Origin: Escherichia coli
GTDB taxonomy: Bacteria; Pseudomonadota; Gammaproteobacteria; Enterobacterales; Enterobacteriaceae
Reading direction: 5' to 3' (one strand)
Assembly (NCBI RefSeq): GCF_002854065.1
Contig: NZ_CP024147.1
DNA: 64,000 nt
Notes under the pieces: generated by a model
The model's database searches: none
What the model saw: only the letters and a program-made list of their open reading frames with translations
What the model was told of the DNA's origin: nothing
Translations under genes and position numbers: made by a program
Shown: positions 1 to 58,261 of the stretch, piece by piece
Layout: the number at the start of each line of letters is the position of its first letter
How positions within the stretch are numbered: the stretch's first letter is position 1

Positions 1-54
1 TGCTAATTGAGAACCAACTTGTCCAGTGAATCCTGTAATTAATACATTATTCAT
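1..54 (-). CDS. 5' end (about 18 codons) of an SDR-family nucleotide-sugar dehydratase/epimerase gene that runs off the window start
   Basis: Minus-strand ATG at 54-52; translation MNNVLITGFTGQVGSQLA carries a TGxxGxxG Rossmann motif typical of GDP/dTDP-sugar 4,6-dehydratases; remainder lies outside the window. Confidence 0.4.
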   Translation of the reverse strand, partial: MNNVLITGFTGQVGSQLA

Positions 55-60
55 ATATGC

Positions 61-894
61 TTACCCCTTAATAACGTTTAAATATGATTCACATGATCTA
101 TCAAGAATAGATTCGAGAAAACGACTTTTGGTATTAATTTTTTTTGGCCTACCCAGCCAAAATGATTCTGGCGCATCTGTAAATTGATACTGCAGTTCTG
201 GAAATTTTTCCTGCGCTAGCGCCAAAACAATCTGTTGTCGACTGACAAGATCCGGGCCGGAGAAATTAACGATGCGAGTATCAATTTGGCTCCAATTCAA
301 TATAATATTTTTGATGCCTAACAATACATCATTAATTGAAACAACACTGCGCTCAAAACCATCAAATACATCTAATAATTTACTATTCAAACTGTGCTCT
401 TTTACCATTTCAGAGAATTTATCACCTTTCCCTAAAATGTACGAAAATCGTATTACGAAGAACCCAGGGTTATTTGAAAAATGTTCTTCAACTTCACATT
501 TCATTTGACCATATTTGCCAAATGGTTTTCGTTCTGACATTTCAGTGCACACATCAGATGTACCACCAAATACAACATCACTTGATGAGAAAATCACTCG
601 CGCATTTTTTTTAAGTAATTCAGATATCAAAGTAATTGTATTTTTCACATTAATCTTATGCGCAACGTCATAGTTTTTCTCACATTGATCAGGCGCAGAG
701 ACTGCTGAAAGAAAAATGATGGTGTCATCATTGTTTACTTGATCCAGTAAATCATTAAATTCACCAGTTTCCAGATCAAAATGAATATCTGAATTTTTTC
801 TTCCAACTGTTACCAGCGAAAAAGCATCACTAAGAAATGATTTAAGATGATTACCAACGTAACCAGTAGACCCTAGAATGAATACTTTTCTCAT
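61..894 (-). CDS. NAD(P)-binding SDR-type nucleotide-sugar reductase/epimerase (RmlD-like), O-antigen cluster
   Basis: 277 aa ORF with N-terminal GSTGYVG Rossmann motif; AT-rich; co-oriented and tightly packed with the O-antigen genes. Confidence 0.55.
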   Translation of the reverse strand: MRKVFILGSTGYVGNHLKSFLSDAFSLVTVGRKNSDIHFDLETGEFNDLLDQVNNDDTIIFLSAVSAPDQCEKNYDVAHKINVKNTITLISELLKKNARVIFSSSDVVFGGTSDVCTEMSERKPFGKYGQMKCEVEEHFSNNPGFFVIRFSYILGKGDKFSEMVKEHSLNSKLLDVFDGFERSVVSINDVLLGIKNIILNWSQIDTRIVNFSGPDLVSRQQIVLALAQEKFPELQYQFTDAPESFWLGRPKKINTKSRFLESILDRSCESYLNVIKG

Positions 895-967
895 ACTCAG
901 TTACCAAATTATACGAAGTGAAGATGTATGCACATAAAATGCTATGAAGACAATTTTATCTGCCATT

Positions 968-1942
968 TTAATAACCGACGGATAGCTCAAATACACCGTC
1001 ATGATCTTTGGTATCTTTAAATTTAATTTTATAAATTTTATTATGATTAAGGCGAAGCCAGAAACTGTTGTCTTTAATGGATACTCTTTCCCAATCACTT
1101 GTTGTGGTTTTAAAACTGACGGAGACCACATCAACATCAATATTAAAATTAACATCTGAATATTCAGCTGTTGGATTTATATCTCCAACCTTAAAAGCTA
1201 CTGTTTCAGTATTTTTGTATTCCAGGAGCTTAAGCCCATAACTTGTCAGTTTCATAATCAAATTATATTTATTGTATACACTGTCACTTGGACCTTCATC
1301 CAGAACAACACCGTTTTCAATGCAAACAAGTCGATCGGAAAGGAGCTTCAACTGGTGTTCGTCATGCGAAACGATGACGACTGTTGTGTCTGACTTTATT
1401 TTTTCACGAATGCTTTTTTGTGCTTTCTCTGCAAAAGTCACGTCACCGACACCCAGTACTTCATCAATTAACAGAACTTCAGGGGTAGTATACATGGCAA
1501 TTGAGAAACCCAAACGTGCTAGCATACCTGATGAATAATTTTTAATTGGTTTTTCGAAGAACTCATTAAGCTCTGAATATACTTTGATGTCTTCAATAAT
1601 TGATTTGATATAAGACAATCTATGACCGAGGACCATTCCACTAAAGATAGTATTCTGACGACCTGATAAGTTGGGATCAAATCCTGCCTGAAGGGCCATT
1701 AGAGAAATACTGTTTGAATGAATAGTTATTTGCCCAGAATCAGGCTTAATAATACCCGCCAGAACTCGTAGTAATGTAGATTTCCCTGCTCCATTACGCC
1801 CAATTATTCCAAGAGTTTCGCCACGATAAACATCGAATGTAATGTTTGTCAAAGCTTCATATTCATCGTAAGTAAAGAGTGTTTTCTTTTCTCTATAAAC
1901 TAAACCTACGTTTTTTAGCTCAATAATCTTTTCATTCTTCAT
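968..1942 (-). CDS. wzt: O-antigen ABC transporter ATP-binding protein Wzt, with an ~85 aa C-terminal extension
   Basis: Walker A GRNGAGKST, ABC signature YSSGM, Walker B LLIDEVL, H-loop SHD; 4 bp overlap with upstream permease gene; extra beta-rich tail after the nucleotide-binding domain. Confidence 0.85.
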   Translation of the reverse strand: MKNEKIIELKNVGLVYREKKTLFTYDEYEALTNITFDVYRGETLGIIGRNGAGKSTLLRVLAGIIKPDSGQITIHSNSISLMALQAGFDPNLSGRQNTIFSGMVLGHRLSYIKSIIEDIKVYSELNEFFEKPIKNYSSGMLARLGFSIAMYTTPEVLLIDEVLGVGDVTFAEKAQKSIREKIKSDTTVVIVSHDEHQLKLLSDRLVCIENGVVLDEGPSDSVYNKYNLIMKLTSYGLKLLEYKNTETVAFKVGDINPTAEYSDVNFNIDVDVVSVSFKTTTSDWERVSIKDNSFWLRLNHNKIYKIKFKDTKDHDGVFELSVGY

Positions 1943-2712
1943 TTCTGAACAACTCGTGGGAAGATGAATTCTAATCTCTTAAATGCATACAACGAAATAG
2001 AAATCATAATTAAAGAAAGCAGAACTACATATGCGAGCAGCTTAATATTTGGTGCATTATGATACATCAATACATCACGGTACGAACTAAGAATTACTGC
2101 CATCGGGTTAATGAAGAAAATCTTCGATTCCATCGCCGGTATACTTTTGTAATTGAAAAATATACCTGAGCAAAACATCATAATTTGAAGGCCGGTTTCA
2201 ATTACAAATGAAAAATCTCTGACAAAGGGAACAATGATTGACACTATCAAAGAAAATGCAACTATTAATAATAGCTGAACAAAAATGACTGGAATAATCC
2301 AAAGCAAGCCAAGAGTATAATCATAGCCGTACAAGACTAAAAAAATAAATAGCAGAATAAATACAAGTATCTGCTTTAACGCATCCTGCAATATAAATGT
2401 CAAAGGGAAGAATATCTTAGAAATATGTACCTGATTCATTAGGTACTTTCCTTGAATGATACTCCCTTGCGCATGACTAACGCTGCGACCAAACCATATC
2501 CAGGGGATCAGTCCAGTTAACAGGAATGGGACGTAATCATGACCACCTTGCTTAAGAAGATATGCAAAAACCAAATAGTAAATTGCCATTTGAAGGACTG
2601 GTTCGATAATCCACCAAGCATAACTTAAATAGTTTATTGATGCTTCTGATTTTAGATTAAGCTTTGCTTTAACCCAAACCAATTCAAGGGTTTTTAACGA
2701 CATGATACTCAT
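1939..2712 (-). CDS. wzm: O-antigen ABC transporter permease Wzm (ABC-2 type)
   Basis: 257 aa, highly hydrophobic multi-span protein immediately upstream of and overlapping wzt. Confidence 0.85.
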   Translation of the reverse strand: MSIMSLKTLELVWVKAKLNLKSEASINYLSYAWWIIEPVLQMAIYYLVFAYLLKQGGHDYVPFLLTGLIPWIWFGRSVSHAQGSIIQGKYLMNQVHISKIFFPLTFILQDALKQILVFILLFIFLVLYGYDYTLGLLWIIPVIFVQLLLIVAFSLIVSIIVPFVRDFSFVIETGLQIMMFCSGIFFNYKSIPAMESKIFFINPMAVILSSYRDVLMYHNAPNIKLLAYVVLLSLIMISISLYAFKRLEFIFPRVVQK

Positions 2713-2713
2713 G

Positions 2714-5650
<2,937 letters not shown>

Positions 5651-5654
<4 letters not shown>

Positions 5655-6520
5655 TCACCTTTTGCACGTGCTATAATGTATTGACCATAATCATTTTTCT
5701 TCATAGGTAGTGCATTTTTTATTGCTTCTTCTTTGCTTAACCAACCATTTCTTAATGCAATCTCTTCAAGACATGCAACCTTGAGGCCCTGAACATTCTG
5801 GATGGTTTGCACGAAGGATGACGCTTCATGCAAACTTTCGTGGGTCCCTGTATCCAACCAAGCAAAACCACGCCCCAGTAGCTCTACGTTAAGAGTACCT
5901 TCTTTGAGATACATGTCATTAAGATCAGTAATCTCCAGCTCCCCTCTCACTGAAGGTTTAACTTTTTTAGCGAAATCGATAACGCGATTATCATAGAAGT
6001 AAAGTCCAGTGACTGCATAATTTGATTTTGGTTTTGACGGTTTTTCTTCAATAGATACAGCCCGCATCTCGCTATCAAATTCAACTACACCGAAGCGTTC
6101 AGGGTCTTTCACTTGATAACCAAATACTGTTGCACCGTATTCTCTTGCAACAGCATTCTGCAGGATTTTGATAAATGATTGGCCATAAAAAATATTATCA
6201 CCCAGCACCAAACAAACTTTATCGTTTCCTATAAATTTCTCACCAATGAGGAATGCCTGCGCTAATCCATCAGGGCTGGGTTGCACGGCATAATTAAGCC
6301 GAATACCAAAATTACTGCCATCACCGAGTAACCGCTGGAAACTCGCATTATCTTCTTCAGTGGTTATTATTAATATATCTTGAATACCCGCTAGCATAAG
6401 TGTGGAAAGCGGGTAATAAATCATTGGTTTATCATAGATTGGTAATAGTTGTTTTGATACACCACGAGTTATTGGATACAATCTAGTGCCAGAGCCGCCT
6501 GCTAAAATAATACCTTTCAT
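5651..6520 (-). CDS. rmlA: Glucose-1-phosphate thymidylyltransferase
   Basis: 289 aa; [19 protein letters not shown]-terminus and overall RmlA/RfbA sequence signature. Confidence 0.95.
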
Positions 6521-6532
6521 CTTTTATCCTTA

Positions 6533-7621
6533 CTACTCTACGAGCCCTAAGCGTTCACCAGCGTACGAACCATCCATCACACGCTGCCACCATTCTTTAT
6601 TATTTAAATACCAGTGAATGGTTTTAGTGATACCCGTTTCAAACGTTTCTTGCGGCACCCAACCTAAATCTTGTTTAATTTTACTGGCGTCAATGGCATA
6701 TCTAAGGTCATGCCCTGGACGATCGCTAACATACCGAATCAACTGTTCAAAATTTTCAATGCCATCTGGTTTATCTGCAATCAATTCATCGAGAATGCGA
6801 CAAATAGTTTTCACTACATCGATATTTTTACGTTCGTTATGACCACCAATATTATATGTTTCTCCCGGCACACCCTTTGTGACGACTTCATAAAGTGCCC
6901 GGGCATGATCTTCAACATATAACCAATCTCGAATTTGCTCACCGTTCCCATAAACAGGTAAAAGTTTACCCGCAATTGCATTCAGAATAATTAACGGAAT
7001 GAGTTTTTCAGGGAAATGGTACGGCCCATAATTATTAGAACAATTTGTCACTATGGTGGGTAATCCATATGTACGCCGCCATGCACGAACTAAGTGATCA
7101 CTGGATGCCTTAGAGGCGGAATATGGACTGCTAGGGGAATATGAAGTTTGTTCTGTAAACAATGGCAATATTGTATCTGACGATACTTCATCCGGATGAG
7201 GAAGGTCACCATAAACCTCATCCGTAGAAATATGGTGGAAGCGAAATGCACCTTTGCGATCTTCACTAAGTGCTAGCCAATACTTACGAGCTTCTTCTAG
7301 TAAGATATATGTTCCAACAATATTGGTTTCAATAAAGTCTGCAGGGCCTGTGATTGAACGATCAACGTGGCTTTCGGCTGCCAAATGCATTATTGCATCT
7401 GGTTGGTGATGTGCAAAAATATTGGCTATTGCAACGCTGTCGCAAATATCCGCATGCTCAAATTTATACCGCTCGTTATTCTCAATCTCTGTCAGAGATT
7501 CCAAATTACCTGCATAGGTAAGTTTATCAACATTGATGACAGAGTCTTGCGTATTATTAATTATATGACGAACAACTGCAGACCCAATAAAACCTGCACC
7601 ACCTGTAACCAGTATTTTCAC
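6533..7621 (-). CDS. rmlB: dTDP-glucose 4,6-dehydratase
   Basis: 362 aa; [22 protein letters not shown]-terminus; first gene after the galF-rmlB intergenic region, as in E. coli rfb clusters. Confidence 0.95.
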
Positions 7622-7715
7622 TTTGAATTTCCGCTATGACTTATAACTTATGGCTTGATAATATGAATGTTTGTTAAGAACAATCTGAATATTAAAAAAG
7701 ACACTTATGATTAGA

Positions 7716-7727
7716 CACGCTACCGCC
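7716..7727 (-). promoter_or_regulatory. ops element (GGCGGTAGCGTG) within a JUMPstart sequence; RfaH-dependent antitermination signal for the O-antigen operon
   Basis: Plus strand reads CACGCTACCGCC, so the minus-strand transcript carries the exact 12-nt ops consensus about 95 bp upstream of the rmlB start. Confidence 0.75.
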
Positions 7728-8044
7728 CCTGGCTCTCCAGCTACCAGCGCACTGCACCTTCAATGATAAAAATCATTTATGTCAAGGTAAAAATCCGCAA
7801 CGACTCCCACCTGCAAACCCAAAAAATTTCGGCAACTATTTTCGTCTTAAATGCATTTGAACTCAAGGAAAAATCTTATAAACGATATGCAACGCCTACA
7901 TTTCTAACCTATTGTTATTTTTTACTTTGTTTTATGAAATAAAAAGGCAGTGAAGCTAGTAGTAGGTTACCCTACATACTTATGCCCATCTGCCGTTCTA
8001 AAACGCCGTTCTTAAATTTGCTTTATCGTTTACTGAGAAACGAC

Positions 8045-8935
8045 TTAAGATAACAACTTTTCAATACTTTTCCTGATCTTAGCCCCTTCCTTCAGGTTGC
8101 GCAACCCATACTGCACAAACGCCTGCATATACCCCATCTTCTTCCCGCAGTCGTAGCTCTCACCCGTCATCAGCATCGCGTCAACAGACTGCTTATTCGC
8201 CAGTTCGGCGATCGCATCCGTCAGTTGAATTCGGCCCCACGCCCCCGGCACGGTCTTCGCCAGTTCAGGCCAGATATCAGCGGAAAGTACATAGCGGCCT
8301 ACGGCCATCAGATCGGATTCCAGCGTCTGCGGCTGGTCAGGTTTTTCGATAAAATCAACGATACGGCTAACTTTACCTTCGACATCCAGCGGCTCTTTCG
8401 TTTTGATGACGGAGTATTCAGACAGGTCGCCCGGCATACGTTTCGCCAGCACCTGGCTACGCCCGGTTTCGTTGAAACGCGCCACCATGGCGGCAAGGTT
8501 GTAGCGCAGCGGGTCGGCGCTTGCGTTGTCCAGCACGATATCCGGCAACACAACCACAAACGGGTTATCGCCGACAATCGGATGTGCGCACAGGATAGAG
8601 TGTCCCAGGCCCAACGGCTGCGCCTGGCGAACGTTCATGATGGTCACGCCAGGAGGACAGATAGATTGAACTTCAGCCAGCAGCTGACGCTTCACGCGCT
8701 GCTCAAGCAGTGCTTCCAGTTCATACGAGGTATCGAAGTGGTTTTCCACCGAGTTTTTCGATGCGTGTGTGACCAGAACGATTTCTTTGATCCCTGCAGC
8801 AACCACTTCGTCGACGATGTACTGAATCATCGGCTTGTCAACGATCGGCAGCATCTCTTTAGGGATGGCCTTCGTGGCAGGTAGCATGTTCATACCCAAT
8901 CCCGCTACCGGAATGACTGCTTTCAAATTAACCAT
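8045..8935 (-). CDS. galF: UTP-glucose-1-phosphate uridylyltransferase regulatory paralog GalF
   Basis: [43 protein letters not shown] matches GalF; ORF track start at 8947 probably over-extended by 4 codons. Confidence 0.93.
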
Positions 8936-17397: not shown

Positions 17398-17465
17398 GTT
17401 TTTACCTTTCTTCAGGCAACAGTTCGCCCTGACCGTTATGGCCATCAATTTTGGTGTCGTGATTT

Positions 17466-17500: not shown

Positions 17501-18937
17501 CTACACGCGCCCGTAACGATCCTGGAAACGCACCACGTCGTCCTCTTCCAGATAGGCGCCAGATCGCACCTCAATCAGGTCGAGCGGGATTTTCCCCGGG
17601 TTTTCCAGGCAGTGGGTGACGCCAAGGGGGATATAGATAGATTCGTTCTCACCCAGCAGCGTAATTTGGTCATTGAGAGTGACTTTGGCGGTGCCCGCCA
17701 CCACGATCCAGTGTTCCGCCCGGTGGTGATGCATCTGCAGCGACAGCCCTTCCCCCGGCTTCACGGTGATGCGCTTAACCTGATAGCGATCGCCGGAATC
17801 AATCGAGTCATACTTGCCCCACGGGCGGTAGACTTCCCGGTGGATGTGGTGTTCGTGGCGGCCGTCGGCCTTAATCTTCTCGACCACCTTTTTCACGTCC
17901 TGCACCGCGTTGCGATCGGCGATAAGCACCGCGTCTTTGGTTTGCACCACCACCAGGTCCTTTACCCCGACGGTCGTCACCAGGCCAGACTCTGCATAGA
18001 CATAGCTGTTTTCGGTTTTATGGCTGATGACATCGCCATGGTGCACGTTGCCTTCCGGCGTATGGTTGCTTATCTCCCACAGCGATGACCAGGAGCCGAC
18101 ATCGCTCCAGCCCGCGTCCATCGGCACCACTACCGCATCCGCGGTCTGCTCCATCACCGCATAATCGATGGATTCGTCCGGGCAGCTCAGGAACGCCGCT
18201 TCATCGACGCGGATAAAGTCGAGATCCGGGTCGGTGACGTCCATCGCTTTTTCGCAGGCGCGAAGAATATCCGGGCGATATTTGCCCAGCTCTTCCAGAT
18301 AGCGCCCGGCGCGGAACAGGAACATGCCGCTGTTCCAGTAATATTCACCGCTGGCGACATAGGCCTGTGCGGTATCGAGATTGGGTTTTTCGACAAACTG
18401 CGCGACGTCGAAGGCCAGCGTGTCGTCGGTACCCGGCGTGACATCACCACGGCGAATATAGCCGTAGCCGGTTTCCGGCACGTTCGGCACGATACCGAAG
18501 GTCACCAGCTTGCCATTTTCAGCATACGGCGTGGCATGACGAACCGCCGCGCGGAAGGCCTCTTCGTCCTGAATCACATGGTCCGCCGCCAGCACCAGCA
18601 TCAGCGGGTCGCAGTCCGGTTCGCGACGCTTAGCCGCCAGCGCCGCCAGGGCGATGGCTGGCGCCGTGTTGCGCCCTGCCGGTTCCAGAATAATGTTTTC
18701 GGTCAGCTTGTTGAGTTGACGCAGCTGTTCCGCCACGATAAAGCGGTGTTGCTCATTGCAGATCACCACCGGGCTGGCGCACTTCACGCCGTCCAGCCGG
18801 TTCACCGTGGCCTGCAGCATGGTCATGTCCCCTTTCAGGCACAGGAACTGTTTGGGGTACAGCACTCTGGACAGCGGCCACAGTCGGCTACCCGAGCCAC
18901 CGGCCATCACGACCGGGAAAAGCGTAGTTTGACTCAT
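17501..18937 (-). CDS. manC: Mannose-1-phosphate guanylyltransferase
   Basis: 478 aa; N-terminal [14 protein letters not shown] nucleotidyltransferase motif and C-terminal cupin domain (cpsB in K-12 nomenclature). Confidence 0.93.
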
Positions 18938-31885: not shown

Positions 31886-31897
31886 CATGCTACTGCC
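31886..31897 (-). promoter_or_regulatory. ops-like motif (GGCAGTAGCATG, 10 of 12 matches to ops) in the wza leader; possible JUMPstart
   Basis: Plus strand CATGCTACTGCC; sits about 190 bp upstream of the wza start codon. Two mismatches to the consensus, so function is uncertain. Confidence 0.3.
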
Positions 31898-31968
31898 CTT
31901 GGCTTTCAGCTACCAATTCACCTAAAAATCATGTTGTTATAGGAAACCCACCCATTCATAAAAAGAAT

Positions 31969-46825: not shown

Positions 46826-49800
46826 GTGAAGTTTTTTGCCCTCTTCATTTACCGCCCGGTGGCGACGATTTTACTGTCGGTCGCCATTACCCTGTGCGGC
46901 ATACTGGGTTTCCGTATGCTGCCAGTGGCCCCGCTGCCGCAGGTCGATTTTCCGGTGATTATGGTCAGCGCCTCGCTGCCCGGTGCGTCGCCGGAGACAA
47001 TGGCATCTTCCGTTGCCACACCGCTGGAGCGCTCACTTGGGCGCATTGCCGGAGTCAGTGAAATGACCTCCAGCAGTTCGCTCGGCAGCACACGCATTAT
47101 TTTGCAGTTTGATTTTGACCGGGATATCAACGGCGCAGCGCGCGATGTGCAGGCGGCGATCAACGCCGCGCAAAGTTTGCTGCCCAGCGGGATGCCCAGC
47201 CGTCCGACCTATCGCAAAGCGAACCCGTCGGATGCGCCAATTATGATCCTCACGCTGACATCCGATACTTATTCGCAGGGTGAACTGTACGATTTCGCCT
47301 CGACGCAGCTAGCTCCGACGATTTCGCAAATCGACGGTGTTGGTGATGTCGATGTCGGCGGCAGCTCACTGCCCGCCGTACGCGTCGGGCTGAATCCGCA
47401 GGCGCTGTTTAATCAGGGCGTGTCGCTGGACGACGTACGCACCGCCATCAGCAATGCCAACGTGCGTAAACCGCAGGGCGCGCTGGAAGATGGCACTCAC
47501 CGCTGGCAGATCCAGACCAATGATGAGCTAAAAACCGCCGCTGAATATCAGCCGTTGATTATTCACTACAACAACGGCGGCGCGGTTCGTCTGGGCGATG
47601 TGGCGACGGTGACCGACTCAGTGCAGGATGTGCGCAACGCCGGGATGACCAACGCCAAACCGGCTATTTTACTGATGATCCGCAAACTGCCGGAAGCCAA
47701 TATTATCCAGACGGTTGACAGCATCCGGGCAAAATTACCGGAGTTGCAGGAAACCATTCCGGCGGCGATTGATCTGCAAATTGCCCAGGATCGCTCCCCC
47801 ACCATTCGCGCCTCGCTGGAAGAAGTCGAGCAAACGCTGATTATCTCGGTGGCGCTGGTGATTCTGGTGGTGTTTTTATTCCTGCGCTCGGGTCGCGCCA
47901 CTATTATTCCCGCCGTTTCGGTGCCGGTTTCGCTGATTGGTACGTTTGCGGCGATGTACCTGTGCGGATTCAGTCTCAATAACCTTTCGTTAATGGCGCT
48001 CACCATCGCTACTGGTTTCGTGGTGGATGACGCCATCGTGGTGCTGGAAAACATTGCACGTCATCTGGAAGCGGGAATGAAACCGTTGCAAGCCGCACTG
48101 CAAGGTACTCGCGAAGTCGGTTTTACGGTGCTGTCGATGAGTCTGTCACTGGTGGCGGTGTTCCTGCCGCTGCTGTTGATGGGCGGATTGCCGGGCCGAC
48201 TGTTACGCGAGTTTGCCGTGACGCTTTCTGTCGCCATTGGTATTTCGTTGCTGGTTTCTCTGACATTAACGCCAATGATGTGTGGCTGGATGCTGAAAGC
48301 CAGCAAGCCGCGCGAGCAAAAGCGACTGCGTGGTTTTGGTCGCATGTTGGTAGCCCTGCAACAAGGCTACGGCAAGTCACTGAAATGGGTGCTCAATCAT
48401 ACCCGTCTGGTGGGCGTGGTGCTGCTTGGCACCATTGCGCTGAATATCTGGCTGTATATCTCGATCCCGAAAACCTTCTTCCCGGAGCAGGACACTGGCG
48501 TGTTGATGGGCGGGATTCAGGCGGATCAGAGTATTTCGTTTCAGGCGATGCGCGGTAAATTGCAGGATTTCATGAAAATTATCCGTGACGATCCGGCAGT
48601 GGATAATGTCACCGGCTTTACAGGCGGTTCGCGAGTGAACAGCGGGATGATGTTTATCACCCTCAAGCCACGCGACGAACGCAGCGAAACGGCGCAGCAA
48701 ATTATCGACCGTCTGCGCGTAAAACTGGCGAAAGAACCGGGGGCGAATCTGTTCCTGATGGCGGTACAGGATATTCGCGTTGGTGGGCGTCAGTCGAACG
48801 CCAGCTACCAGTACACGTTGTTATCCGACGACCTGGCGGCACTGCGCGAATGGGAGCCGAAAATCCGCAAAAAACTGGCGACGTTGCCGGAACTGGCGGA
48901 CGTGAACTCCGATCAGCAGGATAACGGCGCGGAGATGAATCTGGTTTACGACCGCGACACCATGGCACGGCTGGGAATCGACGTACAAGCCGCCAACAGT
49001 CTGTTAAATAACGCCTTCGGTCAGCGGCAAATCTCGACCATTTACCAGCCGATGAACCAGTATAAAGTGGTGATGGAAGTGGATCCGCGCTATACCCAGG
49101 ACATCAGTGCGCTGGAAAAAATGTTCGTTATCAATAACGAAGGCAAAGCGATCCCGCTGTCGTATTTCGCTAAATGGCAACCGGCGAATGCCCCACTATC
49201 GGTGAATCATCAGGGATTATCGGCGGCCTCGACCATTTCGTTTAACCTGCCGACCGGAAAATCGCTCTCGGACGCCAGTGCGGCGATCGATCGCGCAATG
49301 ACCCAGCTTGGGGTGCCTTCGACGGTGCGCGGCAGTTTTGCCGGCACGGCGCAGGTGTTCCAGGAGACGATGAACTCGCAGGTGATCCTGATTATCGCCG
49401 CCATCGCCACGGTGTATATCGTGCTGGGTATCCTTTACGAGAGTTACGTACATCCGCTGACGATTCTCTCCACCCTGCCCTCGGCGGGCGTTGGAGCGCT
49501 GTTGGCGCTGGAGCTGTTCAATGCCCCGTTCAGCCTAATCGCCCTGATAGGGATCATGCTATTAATCGGCATCGTGAAGAAAAACGCCATTATGATGGTC
49601 GATTTTGCGCTTGAAGCCCAACGGCACGGTAACCTGACGCCGCAGGAAGCTATTTTCCAGGCCTGTCTGCTGCGTTTTCGCCCGATTATGATGACCACCC
49701 TGGCGGCGCTGTTTGGCGCGCTGCCGCTGGTATTGTCGGGCGGTGACGGCTCGGAGCTGCGGCAACCCCTGGGGATCACCATTGTCGGCGGTCTGGTGAT

Positions 49801-49903
49801 GAGCCAGCTCCTGACGCTGTATACCACGCCGGTGATGTATCTCTTTTTCGACCGTCTGCGGCTGCGTTTTTCGCGTAAACCTAAACAAACGGTAACCGAG
49901 TAA
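46826..49903 (+). CDS. mdtC: Multidrug efflux RND transporter permease MdtC
   Basis: 1025 aa RND pump immediately following mdtB. Confidence 0.95.
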
Positions 49904-51319
49904 ATGACAGATCTTCCCGACAGCACCCGCTGGCAATTATGGATTGTGGCTTTCGGCTTCTTTATGCAGTCGCTGGACACCACCATCGTAAACACCGCCC
50001 TTCCCTCAATGGCGCAAAGCCTCGGGGAAAGTCCGTTGCATATGCACATGGTCATTGTCTCTTATGTGCTGACCGTGGCGGTGATGCTGCCCGCCAGCGG
50101 CTGGCTGGCGGACAAAGTCGGCGTGCGCAATATTTTCTTTACCGCCATCGTGCTGTTTACTCTCGGTTCACTGTTTTGCGCGCTTTCCGGCACGCTGAAC
50201 GAACTGTTGCTGGCACGCGCGTTACAGGACGTTGGCGGCGCGATGATGGTGCCGGTCGGCAGGTTGACGGTGATGAAAATCGTACCGCGCGAGCAATATA
50301 TGGCGGCGATGACCTTTGTCACGTTACCCGGTCAGGTCGGTCCGCTGCTCGGTCCGGCGCTCGGCGGTCTGCTGGTAGAATACGCGTCGTGGCACTGGAT
50401 CTTTTTGATCAACATTCCGGTGGGGATTATCGGTGCGATCGCCACACTGATGTTAATGCCGAACTACACCATGCAGACGCGGCGCTTTGATCTCTCCGGA
50501 TTTTTATTGCTGGCGGTTGGCATGGCGGTATTAACCCTGGCGCTGGACGGCAGTAAAGGTACAGGTTTATCGCCGCTGACGATTGCAGGCCTGGTCGCAG
50601 TTGGCGTGGTGGCACTGGTGCTTTATCTGCTGCACGCCAGAAATAACCACCGCGCTCTTTTCAGTCTGAAACTGTTCCGCACTCGTACCTTTTCGCTGGG
50701 CCTGGCGGGGAGCTTTGCCGGACGTATTGGCAGTGGCATGTTGCCCTTTATGACACCGGTTTTCTTGCAAATTGGCCTCGGTTTCTCGCCTTTTCATGCC
50801 GGACTGATGATGATCCCGATGGTGCTCGGCAGCATGGGGATGAAGCGAATTGTGGTACAGGTGGTGAATCGCTTTGGCTATCGTCGGGTACTGGTGGCAA
50901 CCACGCTTGGCCTGTCGCTGGTCACCCTTTTGTTTATGACCACCGCTCTGCTGGGCTGGTACTACGTTTTGCCGTTCGTCCTGTTTTTACAAGGGATGGT
51001 CAACTCGACGCGTTTCTCCTCCATGAACACCCTGACGCTGAAAGATCTCCCGGACAACCTGGCGAGCAGCGGCAACAGTCTGCTGTCGATGATTATGCAA
51101 TTGTCGATGAGTATCGGCGTCACTATCGCCGGGCTGTTGCTGGGACTTTTTGGTTCGCAACATGTCAGCGTCGACAGCGGCACCACACAAACCGTCTTTA
51201 TGTACACCTGGCTTAGCATGGCGTTTATCATCGCCCTTCCGGCGTTCATCTTTGCCAGAGTGCCAAACGATACGCATCAAAACGTGGCTATTTCGCGGCG
51301 AAAAAGGAGCGCGCAATGA
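49904..51319 (+). CDS. mdtD: MFS-type efflux transporter MdtD
   Basis: 471 aa, 14-TMS-type major facilitator; directly follows mdtC. Confidence 0.93.
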
Positions 51320-52719
51320 AGTTCTGGCGGCCCGGTATTACCGGCAAACTGTTTCTGGCGATTTTCGCCACCTGCATTGTCTTGCTGATCAGTATGCACT
51401 GGGCGGTGCGTATCAGTTTTGAGCGCGGCTTTATTGATTACATCAAGCATGGCAATGAGCAGCGGCTGCAAATGCTCGGCGATGCCCTGGGCGAGCAGTA
51501 TGCGCAGCACGGTAACTGGCAATTTCTGCGCAATAACGACCGCTTTGTGTTTCAGATCCTGCGCTCGTTCGAACGCGACAACCCGGAAGACCGAACTGGT
51601 CCCGGTATGCCGCCGCACGGCTGGCGCACGCAATTCTGGGTAATCGATCAAAATAACACCGTGCTGGTTGGCCCGCGCGCGCCCATTCCGCCGGACGGTT
51701 CGCGACGACCCATACTGGTCAATGGTGTTGAAGTTGGCGCGGTGATCGCCTCACCCGTTGAGCGACTGACCCGCAATACTGATATCAATTTCGATAAGCA
51801 ACAGCGGCAAACCAGCTGGCTGATTGTCGCCCTGGCAACGTTACTCGCGGCGCTCGCCACCTTTCTGCTGGCGCGCGGTTTGCTGGCTCCGGTCAAACGG
51901 CTGGTGGACGGCACGCACAAACTGGCAGCGGGCGATTTCACTACCCGCGTGACGCCCACCAGCGAAGACGAACTGGGGAAACTGGCGCAAGACTTCAACC
52001 AGCTTGCCAGCACGCTGGAGAAAAACCAGCAAATGCGCCGCGATTTTATGGCTGATATCTCTCACGAACTGCGTACGCCATTAGCGGTGCTGCGCGGTGA
52101 ACTGGAAGCCATTCAGGATGGCGTGCGTAAATTCACGCCGGAGACGGTGGCGTCTTTACAGGCGGAGGTCGGTACACTGACCAAACTGGTTGACGATCTC
52201 CATCAGTTGTCGATGTCTGATGAAGGCGCTCTCGCCTATCAAAAAGCACCGGTAGATTTGATCCCACTGCTGGAAGTGGCGGGCGGCGCATTTCGCGAAC
52301 GATTCGCCAGTCGTGGCCTGAAACTGCAATTTTCCCTGCCAGACAGTATTACCGTATTTGGCGATCGCGACCGTTTAATGCAGTTATTCAATAACTTACT
52401 GGAAAACAGCCTGCGCTACACTGACAGCGGCGGCAGCCTGCAAATCTCTGCCGGGCAGCGCGACAAAACGGTGCGCCTGACCTTTGCCGACAGTGCGCCA
52501 GGTGTCAGTGACGATCAGCTACAAAAATTGTTTGAACGTTTTTATCGCACCGAAGGTTCCCGCAACCGTGCCAGCGGCGGTTCCGGGCTGGGGCTGGCGA
52601 TTTGCCTGAACATTGTTGAAGCACATAATGGTCGCATTATTGCTGCCCATTCGCCTTTTGGCGGGGTAAGCATTACAGTAGAGTTACCGCTGGAACGGGA
52701 TTTACAGAGAGAAGTATGA
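51316..52719 (+). CDS. baeS: Envelope-stress sensor histidine kinase BaeS
   Basis: 467 aa; HAMP domain, H-box [14 protein letters not shown] and ATPase domain; 4 bp overlap with mdtD. Confidence 0.95.
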
Positions 52720-53438
52720 CCGAGTTACCAATCGACGAAAACACACCGCGTATTTTGATCGTGGAAGATGAACCGAAGCTGGGGCAGTTGCTCATTGATT
52801 ATCTACGTGCTGCGAGCTATGCGCCGACGCTTATCAGCCACGGCGATCAGGTACTGCCGTATGTGCGCCAGACACCACCGGATCTGATCCTGTTAGATCT
52901 GATGCTCCCTGGCACCGATGGCCTGACGCTGTGCCGGGAAATTCGTCGTTTTTCTGACATTCCGATCGTGATGGTGACGGCAAAAATCGAAGAGATCGAT
53001 CGCCTGCTGGGGCTGGAGATTGGCGCAGATGATTATATCTGTAAGCCGTACAGCCCACGGGAAGTGGTAGCGCGCGTCAAAACCATTTTGCGCCGTTGCA
53101 AACCGCAGCGCGAGTTGCAGCAACAGGATGCTGAAAGCCCGTTGATTATCGACGAAGGTCGTTTTCAGGCTTCATGGCGCGGTAAAATGCTTGACCTGAC
53201 GCCTGCGGAATTTCGTCTGCTGAAAACGCTCTCTCATGAACCAGGAAAAGTGTTCTCCCGCGAGCATTTGCTCAATCATCTTTATGACGACTACCGCGTA
53301 GTAACCGACCGCACCATCGACAGCCACATTAAAAACCTGCGCCGCAAGCTGGAATCTCTCGACGCCGAACAGTCATTTATCCGCGCCGTTTACGGCGTCG
53401 GTTACCGCTGGGAAGCCGACGCCTGCCGCATCGTTTAG
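52716..53438 (+). CDS. baeR: Response regulator BaeR (OmpR family)
   Basis: 240 aa; receiver domain ([10 protein letters not shown]...[11 protein letters not shown]) and winged-helix output domain. Confidence 0.95.
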
Positions 53439-53628
53439 TTTTAGCGACATTATTTTGTTAGCCGGAGATGGCGTTCAGACCCGATCCGGCAACATTATCC
53501 CACGCATGGTCAGCAAACTGACATTATCTCTCCGCCCTGGCAGGCATCAGAAAATCGCTCATACTTTAATCGGTAAACAGCACCTTTAGATGCTGTTTTC
53601 GATACACAATTTCAATCAAGGAGTCATT

Positions 53629-53961
53629 ATGGCTGGTTGGTTTGAACTCAGTAAGAGCAGTGATAATCAGTTCCGGTTTGTGCTAAAAGCGGGCAATGGT
53701 GAGACTATCCTCACCAGCGAGCTGTATACCTCAAAAGCCTCTGCGGAAAAGGGCATCGCGTCGGTGCGTAGCAACAGCCCGCAAGAAGAACGCTATGAGA
53801 AAAAAACGGCAAGTAACGGCAAATTCTATTTCAATCTGAAAGCCGCTAATCATCAAATTATCGGCTCCAGCCAGATGTACGCCACCGCACAATCTCGTGA
53901 AACCGGAATTGCCTCCGTTAAAGCCAATGGCACAAGCCAGACGGTGAAAGACAATACGTAA
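53629..53961 (+). CDS. yegP: YegP (UPF0339/DUF1508 tandem-repeat small protein)
   Basis: Probable start MAGWFELSK with AAGGAG Shine-Dalgarno at 53617-53622; two internal repeats (FRFVLKAGNGETILTSELYTSK and FYFNLKAANHQIIGSSQMYATAQS). Confidence 0.85.
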   Translation: MAGWFELSKSSDNQFRFVLKAGNGETILTSELYTSKASAEKGIASVRSNSPQEERYEKKTASNGKFYFNLKAANHQIIGSSQMYATAQSRETGIASVKANGTSQTVKDNT

Positions 53962-54214
53962 TTACGATGCCGGGCGTGGGTTGTTGGCGTCCGGCTTTAT
54001 ATCCAAATAACGCTTAGTTATTGATAATTAAGAGTAACTGCCGCCATTAAAATAGTGGGCACTGACGAGCACTCGTTGTGCTTTCTTTGTTTACCATCCC
54101 ATACTTATCCTCCTGAACATGTTCATGTGCCAAAATATCTTCTAATACTTTCGTGACGCTATCCGGTTTATGACATACACTGATGTAAGATTTTTACTTA
54201 CAGGCGGGCGTAAA

Positions 54215-54466
54215 ATGGCCAGAACGATGACGGTTGATCTCGGCGATGAGTTGCGTGAATTTATCGAGTCCTTAATTGAATCCGGCGACTATCGCACCCA
54301 AAGCGAAGTGATCCGTGAGTCACTGCGATTACTTCGAGAAAAGCAAGCAGAGTCTCGCCTGCAAGCGTTACGTGACATGCTCGCAGAAGGGTTGAGTAGT
54401 GGTGAAGCTCAGCCGTGGGAAAAGGACGCGTTCTTACAGAAGGTGAAAGCAGGGATAAGGAAATAA
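54215..54466 (+). CDS. parD: ParD-like ribbon-helix-helix antitoxin (type II toxin-antitoxin)
   Basis: MARTMTVDLGDELREFIESLIESGDYRTQSEVIRESLRLLRE matches the ParD (COG3609) pattern; stop is 1 nt before the toxin start. Confidence 0.8.
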   Translation: MARTMTVDLGDELREFIESLIESGDYRTQSEVIRESLRLLREKQAESRLQALRDMLAEGLSSGEAQPWEKDAFLQKVKAGIRK

Positions 54467-54467
54467 T

Positions 54468-54764
54468 GTGCGTATTATTAAACTCATGCCAAAAGCCAAT
54501 GAGGATTTAGAAGGCATCTGGTATTACAGCTATCACCATTTCGGCGAACCACAAGCCGACAGATATGTGGAACATCTTTCAGACGTTCTCCAGATTCTGA
54601 GTAACAATAATATAGGTACGCCCAGACCTGAATTAGGCGAAGGTATTTTTGTTCTTCCTTTTGAACGCCACGTCATTTATTTCCTGCAATCACCAGGGGA
54701 AATTATCGTCATTCGTATCCTTAACCAAAACCAGGACGCCACCAGACATTTACACTGGAGCTAA
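54468..54764 (+). CDS. parE: ParE/RelE-superfamily toxin (type II toxin-antitoxin)
   Basis: 98 aa from a GTG start (an ATG at 54486 is an alternative); C-terminal HVIYFLQSPGEIIVIRILNQNQD fits the ParE fold; lower GC than neighbouring core genes. Confidence 0.8.
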   Translation: MRIIKLMPKANEDLEGIWYYSYHHFGEPQADRYVEHLSDVLQILSNNNIGTPRPELGEGIFVLPFERHVIYFLQSPGEIIVIRILNQNQDATRHLHWS

Positions 54765-54866
54765 ACCCGCCGATTGCGCTACAATGCCCGCCCTTAAAGT
54801 GGGGGCACTCCCCTAACCGCTTCATCAGGTGAAGCGGATCTGACCTGTCATCAGAACGAGAGAATT

Positions 54867-56228
54867 ATGTTTAAACCGGAACTCCTTTCCCCGGCGGGAA
54901 CGCTGAAAAATATGCGTTACGCTTTCGCTTATGGCGCAGATGCTGTTTATGCGGGCCAGCCGCGTTATTCCCTGCGTGTGCGCAACAACGAATTCAACCA
55001 CGAAAATCTTCAGCTCGGCATCAATGAAGCCCACGCGCTGGGGAAAAAGTTTTATGTCGTGGTCAACATTGCACCGCACAACGCCAAGCTGAAAACCTTT
55101 ATCCGTGACCTGAAACCGGTGGTGGAAATGGGGCCGGATGCGCTGATTATGTCCGATCCAGGGCTGATTATGCTGGTGCGTGAGCACTTCCCTGAAATGC
55201 CGATCCACCTCTCGGTGCAGGCTAACGCCGTAAACTGGGCGACGGTGAAATTCTGGCAGCAAATGGGCCTGACCCGCGTGATCCTCTCTCGCGAGCTGTC
55301 GCTGGAAGAGATTGAAGAGATCCGCAATCAGGTGCCGGATATGGAGATCGAGATCTTCGTTCACGGCGCACTGTGCATGGCCTACTCCGGTCGCTGCCTG
55401 CTCTCTGGCTATATCAACAAGCGCGACCCGAACCAGGGTACCTGCACCAACGCCTGCCGCTGGGAGTACAACGTCCAGGAAGGGAAAGAAGATGACGTTG
55501 GCAACATCGTACACAAGTACGAGCCGATTCCGGTGCAAAATGTTGAGCCGACGCTGGGTATCGGCGCACCAACCGACAAAGTGTTTATGATCGAAGAAGC
55601 CCAGCGTCCGGGCGAGTATATGACCGCGTTTGAAGATGAGCACGGCACTTACATCATGAACTCGAAAGATCTGCGCGCCATCGCCCATGTTGAACGCCTG
55701 ACCAAAATGGGCGTGCATTCGCTGAAAATCGAAGGTCGTACCAAATCTTTCTACTATTGTGCACGCACCGCACAGGTTTACCGCAAAGCTATCGATGACG
55801 CCGCTGCGGGAAAACCGTTCGATACCAGCCTGCTGGAAACTCTGGAAGGTCTGGCGCATCGTGGCTATACCGAAGGTTTCCTGCGTCGTCATACTCACGA
55901 CGATTATCAGAACTACGAATACGGTTATTCAGTTTCTGACCGCCAGCAGTTTGTTGGTGAGTTTACCGGTGAGCGCAAGGGGGACCTCGCGGCGGTAGCG
56001 GTGAAAAATAAATTCTCCGTTGGCGACAGCCTTGAGCTGATGACGCCGCAAGGCAACATTAACTTTACCCTTGAGCACATGGAAAACGCCAAAGGTGAAG
56101 CGATGCCGGTCGCACCAGGCGATGGTTATACTGTGTGGCTCCCGGTCCCGCAGGATCTTGAGCTAAATTACGCTCTCCTGATGCGTAATTTCTCTGGGGA
56201 AACCACGCGTAACCCACACGGTAAGTGA
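54867..56228 (+). CDS. yegQ: Peptidase U32-family protein YegQ
   Basis: 453 aa; MFKPELLSPAGTLKNMRYAFAYGADAVYAGQPRYSLR N-terminus typical of U32 collagenase-like proteins. Confidence 0.93.
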   Translation: MFKPELLSPAGTLKNMRYAFAYGADAVYAGQPRYSLRVRNNEFNHENLQLGINEAHALGKKFYVVVNIAPHNAKLKTFIRDLKPVVEMGPDALIMSDPGLIMLVREHFPEMPIHLSVQANAVNWATVKFWQQMGLTRVILSRELSLEEIEEIRNQVPDMEIEIFVHGALCMAYSGRCLLSGYINKRDPNQGTCTNACRWEYNVQEGKEDDVGNIVHKYEPIPVQNVEPTLGIGAPTDKVFMIEEAQRPGEYMTAFEDEHGTYIMNSKDLRAIAHVERLTKMGVHSLKIEGRTKSFYYCARTAQVYRKAIDDAAAGKPFDTSLLETLEGLAHRGYTEGFLRRHTHDDYQNYEYGYSVSDRQQFVGEFTGERKGDLAAVAVKNKFSVGDSLELMTPQGNINFTLEHMENAKGEAMPVAPGDGYTVWLPVPQDLELNYALLMRNFSGETTRNPHGK

Positions 56229-56263
56229 TTAATATCGATTATTTTTCCCGGATGGAAAATTCT

Positions 56264-56279
56264 TAGAAACCGATCACAT
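56264..56279 (+). promoter_or_regulatory. Class II CRP site and promoter of cyaR
   Basis: TTAGAaaccgaTCACA is an imperfect TGTGA-N6-TCACA site centred about 41.5 bp upstream of the cyaR 5' end; -10-like TATCAT at 56300-56305. Confidence 0.5.
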
Positions 56280-56312
56280 ACAGCTGCATTTATTAAGGTT
56301 ATCATCCGTTTC

Positions 56313-56399
56313 GCTGAAAAACATAACCCATAAAATGCTAGCTGTACCAGGAACCACCTCCTTAGCCTGTGTAATCTCCCTTACACGGGCTTATTTTTT
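56313..56399 (+). ncRNA. cyaR: CyaR (RyeE) Hfq-dependent small RNA
   Basis: GCTGAAAAACATAACCCATAAAATGCTAGCTGTACCAGGAACCACCTCCTTAGCCTGTGTAATCTCCCTTACACGGGCTTATTTTTT matches CyaR as I recall it, including the terminator hairpin (GCCTGTGTAA...TTACACGGGC) and U-tail. Confidence 0.85.
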
Positions 56400-56557
56400 A
56401 TGCATAAGCCCTATCCCTGGTCACCGTCTTCCATTGACCACATCGATAGAATCTCCCTTCATAGCACGATGCCTTTCACGTAACGGCATCGTGCTCGCAC
56501 AGGTTCCGGCTAAGCACAACCAGAACGCGCATGTTTGATGCTTACCAAAAAATATTC

Positions 56558-56875
56558 TCACTCTCCACATTTGAATGTCAGACGAGCGACGCCATGTAAT
56601 CCTGCACCTTCTGTCTTCAGGTCAACTATCTGCATTTTTTTGCCCTGAGTAACACAGAAATGGGCTGCATCATTTTTTACTATATTTTCTGCACCAGATA
56701 TTCTGCCCCTGGCTAAAGAAGCTTCGGCTTCGGTGTAGTATTGGTTATCGAGTTTACGCTGAATATTACTTTTATATGCAAGACCAAATTTACCGATACT
56801 TGTTTCATCATTATGCACAGCACAACCAGATATAAGAAAAATACTAATTAATGATATAGCAGCTATCTTTTTCAT
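56558..56875 (-). CDS. yegR: Small lipoprotein (YegR-like)
   Basis: Probable start MKKIAAISLISIFLISGC (signal peptide with lipobox); about 105 aa; name assigned from position between yegQ/cyaR and yegS. Confidence 0.7.
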   Translation of the reverse strand: MKKIAAISLISIFLISGCAVHNDETSIGKFGLAYKSNIQRKLDNQYYTEAEASLARGRISGAENIVKNDAAHFCVTQGKKMQIVDLKTEGAGLHGVARLTFKCGE

Positions 56876-57280
56876 CTCACCTTCCCCCATTAAATACCAA
56901 CGACACTCTCTAGTGTTTAAATATAATAATGGCATGATTATTATAATTGAATAGGATTATAATAAATGTTCTGTACAACATTTCCTACATAAGTAGGAAT
57001 TACGGACATTGAGGCCCTTCAGGGTAACTCCATGGGGGCTTTAATATATTATATTGAAGATGCCACTGTTTAGTTGAATATTAGGTATATGCTCTTTTTT
57101 GAAATTTATCGGTGGCAGCCGTTAGTATTCGCTGTCCCCATTGCAAGCTCCTGGTGGTAACCACTGAATCTTCCATACTTGAACTGACTTTTTATCCTCC
57201 GACTTTCATCCTGTTCTGACTCCACCTTTTGTTTTCTGCTCTACACTATCTACAGACCAATCATAAAGGCACATACGATC

Positions 57281-58180
57281 ATGGCAGAATTTCCCGCCAG
57301 CTTACTGATTCTTAATGGCAAAAGTACTGACAATCTACCCTTGCGCGAAGCAATTATGCTGTTGCGTGAGGAAGGAATGACGATCCATGTGCGGGTCACC
57401 TGGGAGAAAGGCGATGCCGCACGATATGTAGAGGAGGCCCGGAAGTTGGGTGTCGCAACGGTGATTGCCGGTGGTGGCGATGGCACCATTAATGAAGTTT
57501 CTACGGCGTTGATTCAGTGTGAGGGGGATGGCATACCCGCGCTGGGAATTTTGCCATTAGGAACCGCCAATGATTTTGCCACCAGTGTAGGGATTCCTGA
57601 GGCACTGGATAAGGCGCTGAAACTGGCAATTGCCGGTAACGCCATTGCGATAGATATGGCGCAGGTCAACAAACAAACCTGTTTTATTAATATGGCGACA
57701 GGCGGATTTGGGACGCGTATTACCACAGAAACGCCGGAAAAATTAAAAGCCGCGCTGGGTGGCGTCTCTTACATCATTCATGGCTTAATGCGCATGGATA
57801 CTCTGCAACCGGACCGTTGTGAAATCCGCGGTGAAAACTTTCACTGGCAAGGTGACGCCCTGGTCATTGGTATTGGTAACGGGCGTCAGGCCGGTGGCGG
57901 TCAGCAATTGTGTCCGAACGCATTAATTAACGATGGCTTGCTGCAACTGCGCATTTTTACCGGCGATGAAATTCTTCCGGCTCTCGTATCAACCTTAAAA
58001 TCTGACGAAGATAACCCGAATATTATCGAAGGCGCTTCGTCGTGGTTTGATATACAAGCCCCACACGAAATCACTTTTAATCTTGATGGCGAACCGTTGA
58101 GCGGACAAAACTTTCATATTGAAATACTTCCGGCGGCGTTGCGTTGTCGATTACCACCAGATTGTCCATTATTGCGTTAA
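57281..58180 (+). CDS. yegS: Lipid kinase YegS (diacylglycerol-kinase-like catalytic domain)
   Basis: 299 aa; GGDGT motif ([13 protein letters not shown]) of the DAGK_cat family. Confidence 0.93.
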
Positions 58181-58217
58181 TCAAACTATTCTCTCTTGAA
58201 CCAGGGAGAATCCGAAA

Positions 58218-58253
58218 TGCCGGATGCGGTGTAAATACCTTATCCGGCATACA
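58218..58253. repeat. REP (repetitive extragenic palindrome) between convergent yegS and gatR
   Basis: TGCCGGATGCGGTGTAAATACCTTATCCGGCATAC, the canonical enterobacterial REP unit. Confidence 0.75.
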
Positions 58254-58261
58254 GAACAATA

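Follow-up and report, generated by a model that had tools for sequence, protein, structure and literature searches.

Does the short ops sequence between galF and rmlB in the E. coli DNA analysed here load RfaH onto the polymerase that transcribes the O-antigen operon downstream, and does the transcript of that operon begin far enough upstream to include it? A preliminary description of the locus had claimed a perfect ops site on the minus strand, and had taken the polarity and the promoter-proximal end of the operon from it. We examined these points in the window, by which we mean the whole 64 kb stretch of DNA, and in other genomes with related leaders.

Identification of the ops element and JUMPstart

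As claimed, a perfect ops element was found on the minus strand at 7716-7727, where the 12-nt consensus GGCGGTAGnnTG is present as an exact GGCGGTAGCGTG on the coding strand of rmlB (minus-strand context CAGTGCGCTGGTAGCTGGAGAGCCAGGGGCGGTAGCGTG), i.e. as the non-template strand, with the pause position U11 at 7717. It is the single exact copy of the 12-mer in the window, approximately 0.01 copies being expected from base composition on both strands, and 94 nt separate it from the GTG start of rmlB at 7621, in accordance with the distance of about 95 bp given before. The core GGCGGTAG occurs eight times in the window. Precisely, seven of these eight copies fall inside ORFs of at least 100 aa and are without the 3′ TG context, and the copy at 7716-7727 is both the sole intergenic one and the sole full 12-mer. 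There were also 26 near-matches to ops with at most two mismatches, against 6 expected; we rejected this excess as a functional signal and considered it a composition effect of GC-rich coding sequence.

The 12-mer is the 3′ end of a 39-nt JUMPstart at 7716-7754 on the minus strand, which scored 56.0 bits with Rfam RF01707 (gathering score 35, E 3.9e-10, model positions 1-38 of 38) and which carries a one-nucleotide loop insertion relative to the model. The two arms of its 5-bp hairpin (CUGGU at 7747-7743 and GCCAG at 7733-7729, minus strand) are upstream of the G-run and of ops, and a GGTAGC half-site lies upstream within JUMPstart, at 7745-7740 on the same strand. In the family as it has been described (RF01707; Hobbs & Reeves 1994; Weinberg et al. 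2010) a 5-bp hairpin is followed by GGGGCGGTAGCGTG, as here, and we found no substantive difference between the two, both being beside a polysaccharide gene cluster. The element is intergenic, between galF and rmlB, and it is downstream of a terminator-like hairpin and of a conserved predicted promoter. By sequence it is a genuine ops/JUMPstart, far beyond chance.

The downstream operon

The preliminary description had spoken of an AT-rich O-antigen operon, and this is what we found: the GC content is 34-40% across the cluster (1-8000), against 51-60% for galF and the wca/colanic-acid genes. All the genes are on the minus strand and were assigned with NCBIfam. The first one is rmlB (rfbB; 6533..7621, dTDP-glucose 4,6-dehydratase, E 1e-207), with a GTG start that is preceded by only a weak GGA Shine-Dalgarno match. 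It is followed by rmlA (5651-6520), by fcf1, a SDR reductase (4701-5651, annotated as fcf1 in identical RefSeq genomes), by fcf2/glf, a UDP-galactopyranose-mutase homologue (3565-4698, annotated as glf in identical RefSeq genomes), by a glycosyltransferase gene (2714-3550), by the ABC-2 permease gene wzm (1939-2712) and the ABC ATPase gene wzt (968-1942), both carrying the name "O52 family" in RefSeq, and by a gene for a sugar-nucleotide-binding protein (61-894). The operon runs on past position 1 of the window; the cluster of strain 100416 comprises 17 genes and, measured from the predicted start, extends for ~16.4 kb, ending before gnd.

The O52 antigen is an ABC-transporter-dependent one, with D-Fucf and 6-deoxy-D-manno-heptose (PMC7685785), and the gene content and the galF-gnd location agree with the description of its cluster (NCBIfam, RefSeq names, PMC7685785). 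Judged by these genes, the operon is the E. coli O52 O-antigen gene cluster. Four RefSeq E. coli genomes match the cluster with 100% identity over 7.7 kb, and 4 of 5426 complete E. coli genomes carry it. The polarity and the promoter-proximal end that had been proposed for the operon were upheld.

Terminator-like hairpin, candidate promoters and predicted transcription start

Upstream of the leader is galF (8045..8935, minus strand; NCBIfam GalF, E 1e-193 to 1e-197, and RefSeq annotation of the identical strain 100416). After it we located, by folding and conservation, a terminator-like hairpin of the form GGCAG...CTGCC at 7994-7946 with a U-tract at 7945-7937, on the minus strand. Its folding energy is -24.7 kcal/mol (z -3.5), with none of 200 shuffles as stable, and that of its K-12 counterpart is -31.4 kcal/mol (z -7.7). 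The outer stem and the T-run (CTGCCGTTTTT) are kept across genera and the inner stems vary. We infer from this that the hairpin serves as the galF terminator.

The conserved promoter was found via cross-genus alignment, a simple scan having given only a lineage-specific site. In 25 aligned leaders from approximately 15 genera there are two conserved non-coding islands, which are the CCTTGTTTC-17 nt-GACAAT pair and JUMPstart; the arrangement CTTGTTTC-17-GACAAT is kept in Escherichia, Salmonella, Citrobacter, Enterobacter, Leclercia and others. The candidate sigma-70 promoter of the O52 operon, at 7838..7866 on the minus strand (-35 TTGAGT at 7866-7861, 17-nt spacer, -10 GAAAAT at 7843-7838), aligns with this arrangement position for position. 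It is a poor match to the consensus (TTGAGT / GAAAAT) and was missed by the simple promoter scan. A start near 7830, 7 nt after the -10 and thus upstream of ops, is predicted from it; such a start would give a leader of ~209 nt, in which ~104 nt would precede ops. By the same rule (start 7 nt after the -10) the K-12 leader has 172 nt. Marolda and Valvano reportedly mapped, in 1998, a leader of 173 nt for O7, which agrees with the K-12 figure.

A consensus scan gave a second promoter-like site, TTTACC-17-TATCAT, at 7763..7791 on the minus strand, just upstream of JUMPstart. It overlaps sequence that Kluyvera genomosp. 3 also has and that faces a 19-column gap in four E. coli comparators, and no conservation of it was seen elsewhere in the leader alignment. 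We considered it a weaker promoter candidate, from which transcription could start near 7756. Both candidates place ops within the transcript.

Conservation of ops and JUMPstart

A search with the intergenic region by megablast (28-nt word) returned 12 records, and the rarity of JUMPstart that this number suggests was rejected as a word-size artefact, because the blastn mode found at least 2202 genomes. In the latter search, only 7756-7716 of the 279-nt leader was common to other E. coli. The O52 JUMPstart has three differences from the common E. coli version, one of them before the stem and two in the loop.

Beyond E. coli, we considered 80 species representatives of the Enterobacteriaceae retrieved with GalF. 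In 71 of the 80, GGCGGTAG sits 180-350 nt after galF, and the complete 12-mer is identical in 58 of these 71 species. Within the 39-mer, positions 27-36 and 38 are invariant in the 71 species. Across species, the first long ORF begins at a median distance of 75.5 nt from ops, and the 94 nt measured here are within the range.

This invariance bears on a reading in which the 12-mer is a consensus (class II) pause alone, slowing polymerase, e.g. for translation coupling, with no loading of a factor. The ops pause is set by T11 and G12 (PMC5995543), and both are present here. However, G4-G8 are dispensable for pausing (PMC5995543) and yet they are invariant in the 71 species, which fits recognition by a protein; we regard a pause without loading as highly unlikely, and keep to the reading of the 12-mer as an RfaH loading site.

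The hairpin of JUMPstart was evaluated by covariation in 66 distinct sequences. In these, 98.8% of the cells are paired and three of the five pairs have changed on both sides, a level reached by 0 of 500 shuffles, and registers slid along the alignment pair only in 20-61% of cells. Thermodynamic folding was uninformative: for the 234-nt leader the folding energy was no better than that of shuffles (z 0.35), and the isolated O52 39-mer folds preferentially into a structure other than the Rfam hairpin. With z values from -0.4 to +0.4 for the leader and the isolated 39-mers, we dropped folding as evidence and used covariation instead.

The compensatory changes in the hairpin speak for JUMPstart being mainly an RNA element, independent of RfaH loading or additional to it, as do its Rfam class of cis-regulatory RNA motif (PMC2864571) and the RfaH-binding RirA, an ops-containing RNA of 73 nt derived from the waaQ leader (PMC6358824, review). 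A possible variant of this explanation is that the hairpin alone, or a RirA-like short leader RNA, has a role in leader stability or in RfaH titration. On the other hand, what is invariant in JUMPstart is ops, an element read in the form of non-template DNA (PMC5995543), the hairpin has only five pairs with folding energies no better than shuffles, and the literature that we examined documents no short RNA from rfb leaders. A mainly RNA-based function therefore seems to us rather improbable, and it is compatible with the RfaH loading model that we favour.

It could also be that ops is an unused relic, and that the operon is expressed without RfaH, either by transcription reading through from galF or by promoters located downstream of ops. 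In favour of this, the start upstream of ops is a predicted one, the AT-rich 94-nt stretch between ops and rmlB could hold weak promoters, and imported DNA could be mismatched to its host. Nevertheless, galF is followed by the strong terminator-like hairpin described above, the consensus scan found no promoter-like site on the minus strand between 7716 and 7621, and the same block is present at about 99.9% identity in many assemblies. Furthermore, ops and JUMPstart have been retained perfectly while their flanks have diverged to ~70%, which argues for selection. We give this explanation very little credit and, in what follows, consider ops as a probably functional site.

Probable RfaH recruitment at the O52 leader

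The bases of ops on which RfaH depends have been studied by mutation. All the ops substitutions lower the stimulation by RfaH, with the exception of G2C, and each of G4C, G5A, A7T and G8C abolishes RfaH recruitment (PMC5995543). When we compared the O52 element by eye with these data, the recruitment bases (C3-G8) and the pause bases (T11, G12) were all intact (PMC5995543). In addition, sites in coding regions do not bind RfaH (PMC9765446), and the element studied here lies outside any ORF of at least 100 aa.

Direct evidence exists for the O6 operon of strain CFT073. There, the RfaH ChIP signal begins at an identical ops and persists along the operon, and in a deletion of rfaH the polymerase occupancy drops toward the end of the operon (PMC9765446). 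The transcription unit starts 67 nt upstream of ops, at a sigma-70 peak (RNA-seq and ChIP; PMC9765446, Data set S2A). Measured from the conserved -10, this start comes 25 nt further downstream, which agrees reasonably well for an estimate based on coverage. With this homologous operon as a model, the dependence of the O52 operon on RfaH in this strain is a well-founded inference.

The gene rfaH is itself outside the window. Matches to the K-12 rfaH DNA were obtained in 5425 of 5426 complete E. coli genomes, so the gene must be present in at least three of the four that carry O52. As regards translation, the published view is that operons under RfaH rely on it for the recruitment of ribosomes (PMC6358824), and this agrees with rmlB having a GTG start and a weak Shine-Dalgarno match. 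Taking together the evidence given in this and the preceding sections, we consider it very probable that ops at 7716-7727 functions as the site where RfaH is loaded for the O52 operon.

The mechanism that we propose is as follows. Transcription would come from the operon's own promoter, between the galF terminator and JUMPstart, with a start near 7830. About 100 nt into the leader the polymerase would transcribe ops and would pause at U11 (window position 7717), and the non-template GGCGGTAGCGTG, in the open bubble, would form a small hairpin displaying G5 and T6. RfaH would then bind both the ops hairpin and the polymerase, displacing NusG, and the refolding of its C-terminal domain would lead to ribosome recruitment. 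The polymerase modified in this way would resist pausing, Rho termination and H-NS silencing over the whole operon, ~16 kb long and with 34-40% GC. For annotation, the element fixes the polarity and the probable 5′ end of the O52 operon, and the expression of O52 is predicted to be RfaH-dependent; for engineering or silencing of the antigen, the targets would be G5/T6 of ops and the -10 at 7843-7838.

Comparison with known systems

The O6 operon of CFT073 (wzx unit) has its ops in the same place after galF, with an identical GGCGGTAGCGTG and with a conserved upstream promoter block that could be aligned. For sequence comparison the O6 leader of clone D i14 was taken as the CFT073 equivalent, since ops and wzx are 71 nt apart in both; three of the 39 positions of its JUMPstart are different in O52, and none of the three falls in the stem or in ops. 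The two operons differ in the first gene, which is rmlB in O52 and wzx in CFT073 O6, and in the mode of export, which is by ABC transporter (wzm/wzt) in O52 and by Wzx/Wzy in CFT073 O6. They differ also in spacing, with 94 nt from ops to the start codon in O52 and 59 nt from the element to wzx in CFT073 O6 (71 nt from the start of ops), and in the predicted leader, which has ~209 nt in O52 and 138 nt in O6, the flanking leader of O52 being ~70% diverged.

The K-12 rfb (O16) and O7 rfb loci share with O52 the succession of galF, terminator, promoter, JUMPstart and rmlB, the last with a GTG start. Their -35 and -10 are in register with those of O52, but the hexamers are TTGTTT/GACAAT and not TTGAGT/GAAAAT. 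In comparison with these leaders, O52 has 19 extra nucleotides beside JUMPstart and a longer spacer between ops and rmlB.

The leaders of waaQ, hlyCABD, kps and tra have in common with O52 the 8-nt core, the TG pause dinucleotide and the non-template location in a leader. The hly and kps ops sites vary at positions 10-12 (GGCGGTAGCATG, GGCGGTAGCATA), unlike the O52 ops, and are at much longer distances from the first gene. By every sequence feature examined, then, the O52 element belongs to the JUMPstart family and to the ops class. Elements of this kind, in this position behind galF and with this function, are textbook knowledge, and a curated model detects the O52 copy automatically.

Origin of the O52 locus

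Local BLAST divided the window into two parts. From position 1 to ~43,200 it is 67-80% identical to K-12, with the gene order kept, and from ~43,250 to 62,300 it is 96-100% identical. The diverged part includes the O52 cluster, galF, the wca cluster, wza, yegH, asmA, dcd, udk, dgcE, alkA, yegD and the 5′ part of mdtA. In a complete genome the diverged block is ~67 kb long and extends from sbcB to mdtA (NZ_CM128593.1, about 1,825,900-1,893,300), with 67-86% identity to K-12 within it and 98-100% in both flanks. Beyond the window it includes gnd, ugd, the his operon, yeeZ, plaP and tsuAB, and it ends inside sbcB; wzzB, yefM-yoeB, yeeY, yegI, yegJ, pphC and yegL are absent from it. The portion 25,834-46,415 of the window recurs in ten further assemblies with 98.7-99.96% identity (at least 99.9% in eight of the ten), and therefore the block is not an assembly artefact.

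The direct comparison with Kluyvera covered the 8.9 kb around galF. Over this segment (wcaK to fcf2, with the leader) the window and Kluyvera genomosp. 3 YDC799 have 98.5% identity; the corresponding values are 81-84% with other Kluyvera and 71-80% with K-12. Residues 1-284 of GalF are 100% identical to those of YDC799, with 94-97% for other Kluyvera and ~90% for Escherichia species. When YegD and Dcd were looked up as exact proteins, all the assemblies returned had the block layout of the window, and no Kluyvera contig was among them.

On this basis we incline slightly to the view that the ~67-kb block from sbcB to mdtA, with the leader and the O52 operon, was acquired from a Kluyvera near genomosp. 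3 by homologous replacement. Intergeneric transfer around gnd/rfb is known in principle, O8/O9 having passed from Klebsiella to E. coli, and Nelson and Selander reportedly described a case for gnd in 1994. In our literature search, no published link of O52 to Kluyvera was found.

If this origin is correct, the O52 antigen of E. coli would be of Kluyvera origin, and the conserved ops/JUMPstart and promoter islands would let the RfaH of the host express an operon of another genus without adaptation. That E. coli RfaH acts on a Kluyvera-like leader is assumed here from the identity of ops. In the ~70%-diverged sequence, non-coding conservation is confined to the terminator stem, the promoter hexamers and JUMPstart/ops, and these kept islands illustrate why O-antigen clusters can cross genera and remain expressed.

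Two further observations concern this block. The leader of YDC799 has one G fewer in the G-run between hairpin and ops (GCCAGGGCGGTAG; L010:5175-5221), with the 12-mer intact and the spacing 1 nt shorter. At the left junction, beyond sbcB (NZ_CM128593.1, about 1,893,700-1,897,000; L107:18,500-22,000), there are a truncated tyrosine recombinase gene, an IS1, an acyltransferase-family gene, possibly for an O-antigen modifier, and a degraded S24 peptidase gene; the genes at this junction could be the remnant of a phage or of an integrative element.

Other elements in the window

The window contains a second JUMPstart, in the leader of wza (colanic acid), at 31886-31923 on the minus strand (Rfam 41.4 bits vs 35). 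Its ops is degenerate (GGCAGTAGCATG), and this copy may be inactive, its G4 being altered and G4C abolishing recruitment (PMC5995543). The wza leader of CFT073 has a perfect ops with cryptic binding of RfaH (PMC9765446). The variant found here is present, at 99% identity or more, in 5 of 5426 complete E. coli genomes.

Three RNA elements were identified with Rfam. The algC RNA motif (17402-17451, minus strand; 55.8 bits vs 33.8) is downstream of a 478-aa minus-strand ORF at 17501-18937, in a region that by K-12 synteny is the colanic-acid cpsB-cpsG (mannose-1-phosphate guanylyltransferase / phosphomannomutase) intergenic region. A Sib antitoxin RNA is at 42066-42212 on the plus strand (150 bits), and the CyaR/RyeE sRNA is at 56311-56396 on the same strand (101 bits), where the ogrK/P2 remnant that adjoins cyaR in K-12 is missing.

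Some differences from K-12 regard the genes. The gene dgcE (37,421-39,760) consists of two ORFs, of 570 and 201 aa, and in K-12 it is a single gene of 1105 aa. Directly after yegD are the Sib/Ibs module and mdtA (~42,050-42,360), the K-12 genes yegI, yegJ, pphC and yegL between yegD and ibsA being missing. Between yegP and yegQ (53,995-54,776) there are ~780 bp without a counterpart in the compared region of K-12. Finally, a copy of IS5 at 62,298-63,502 adjoins the gat genes and is 96% identical to the IS5 of K-12 in wbbL.
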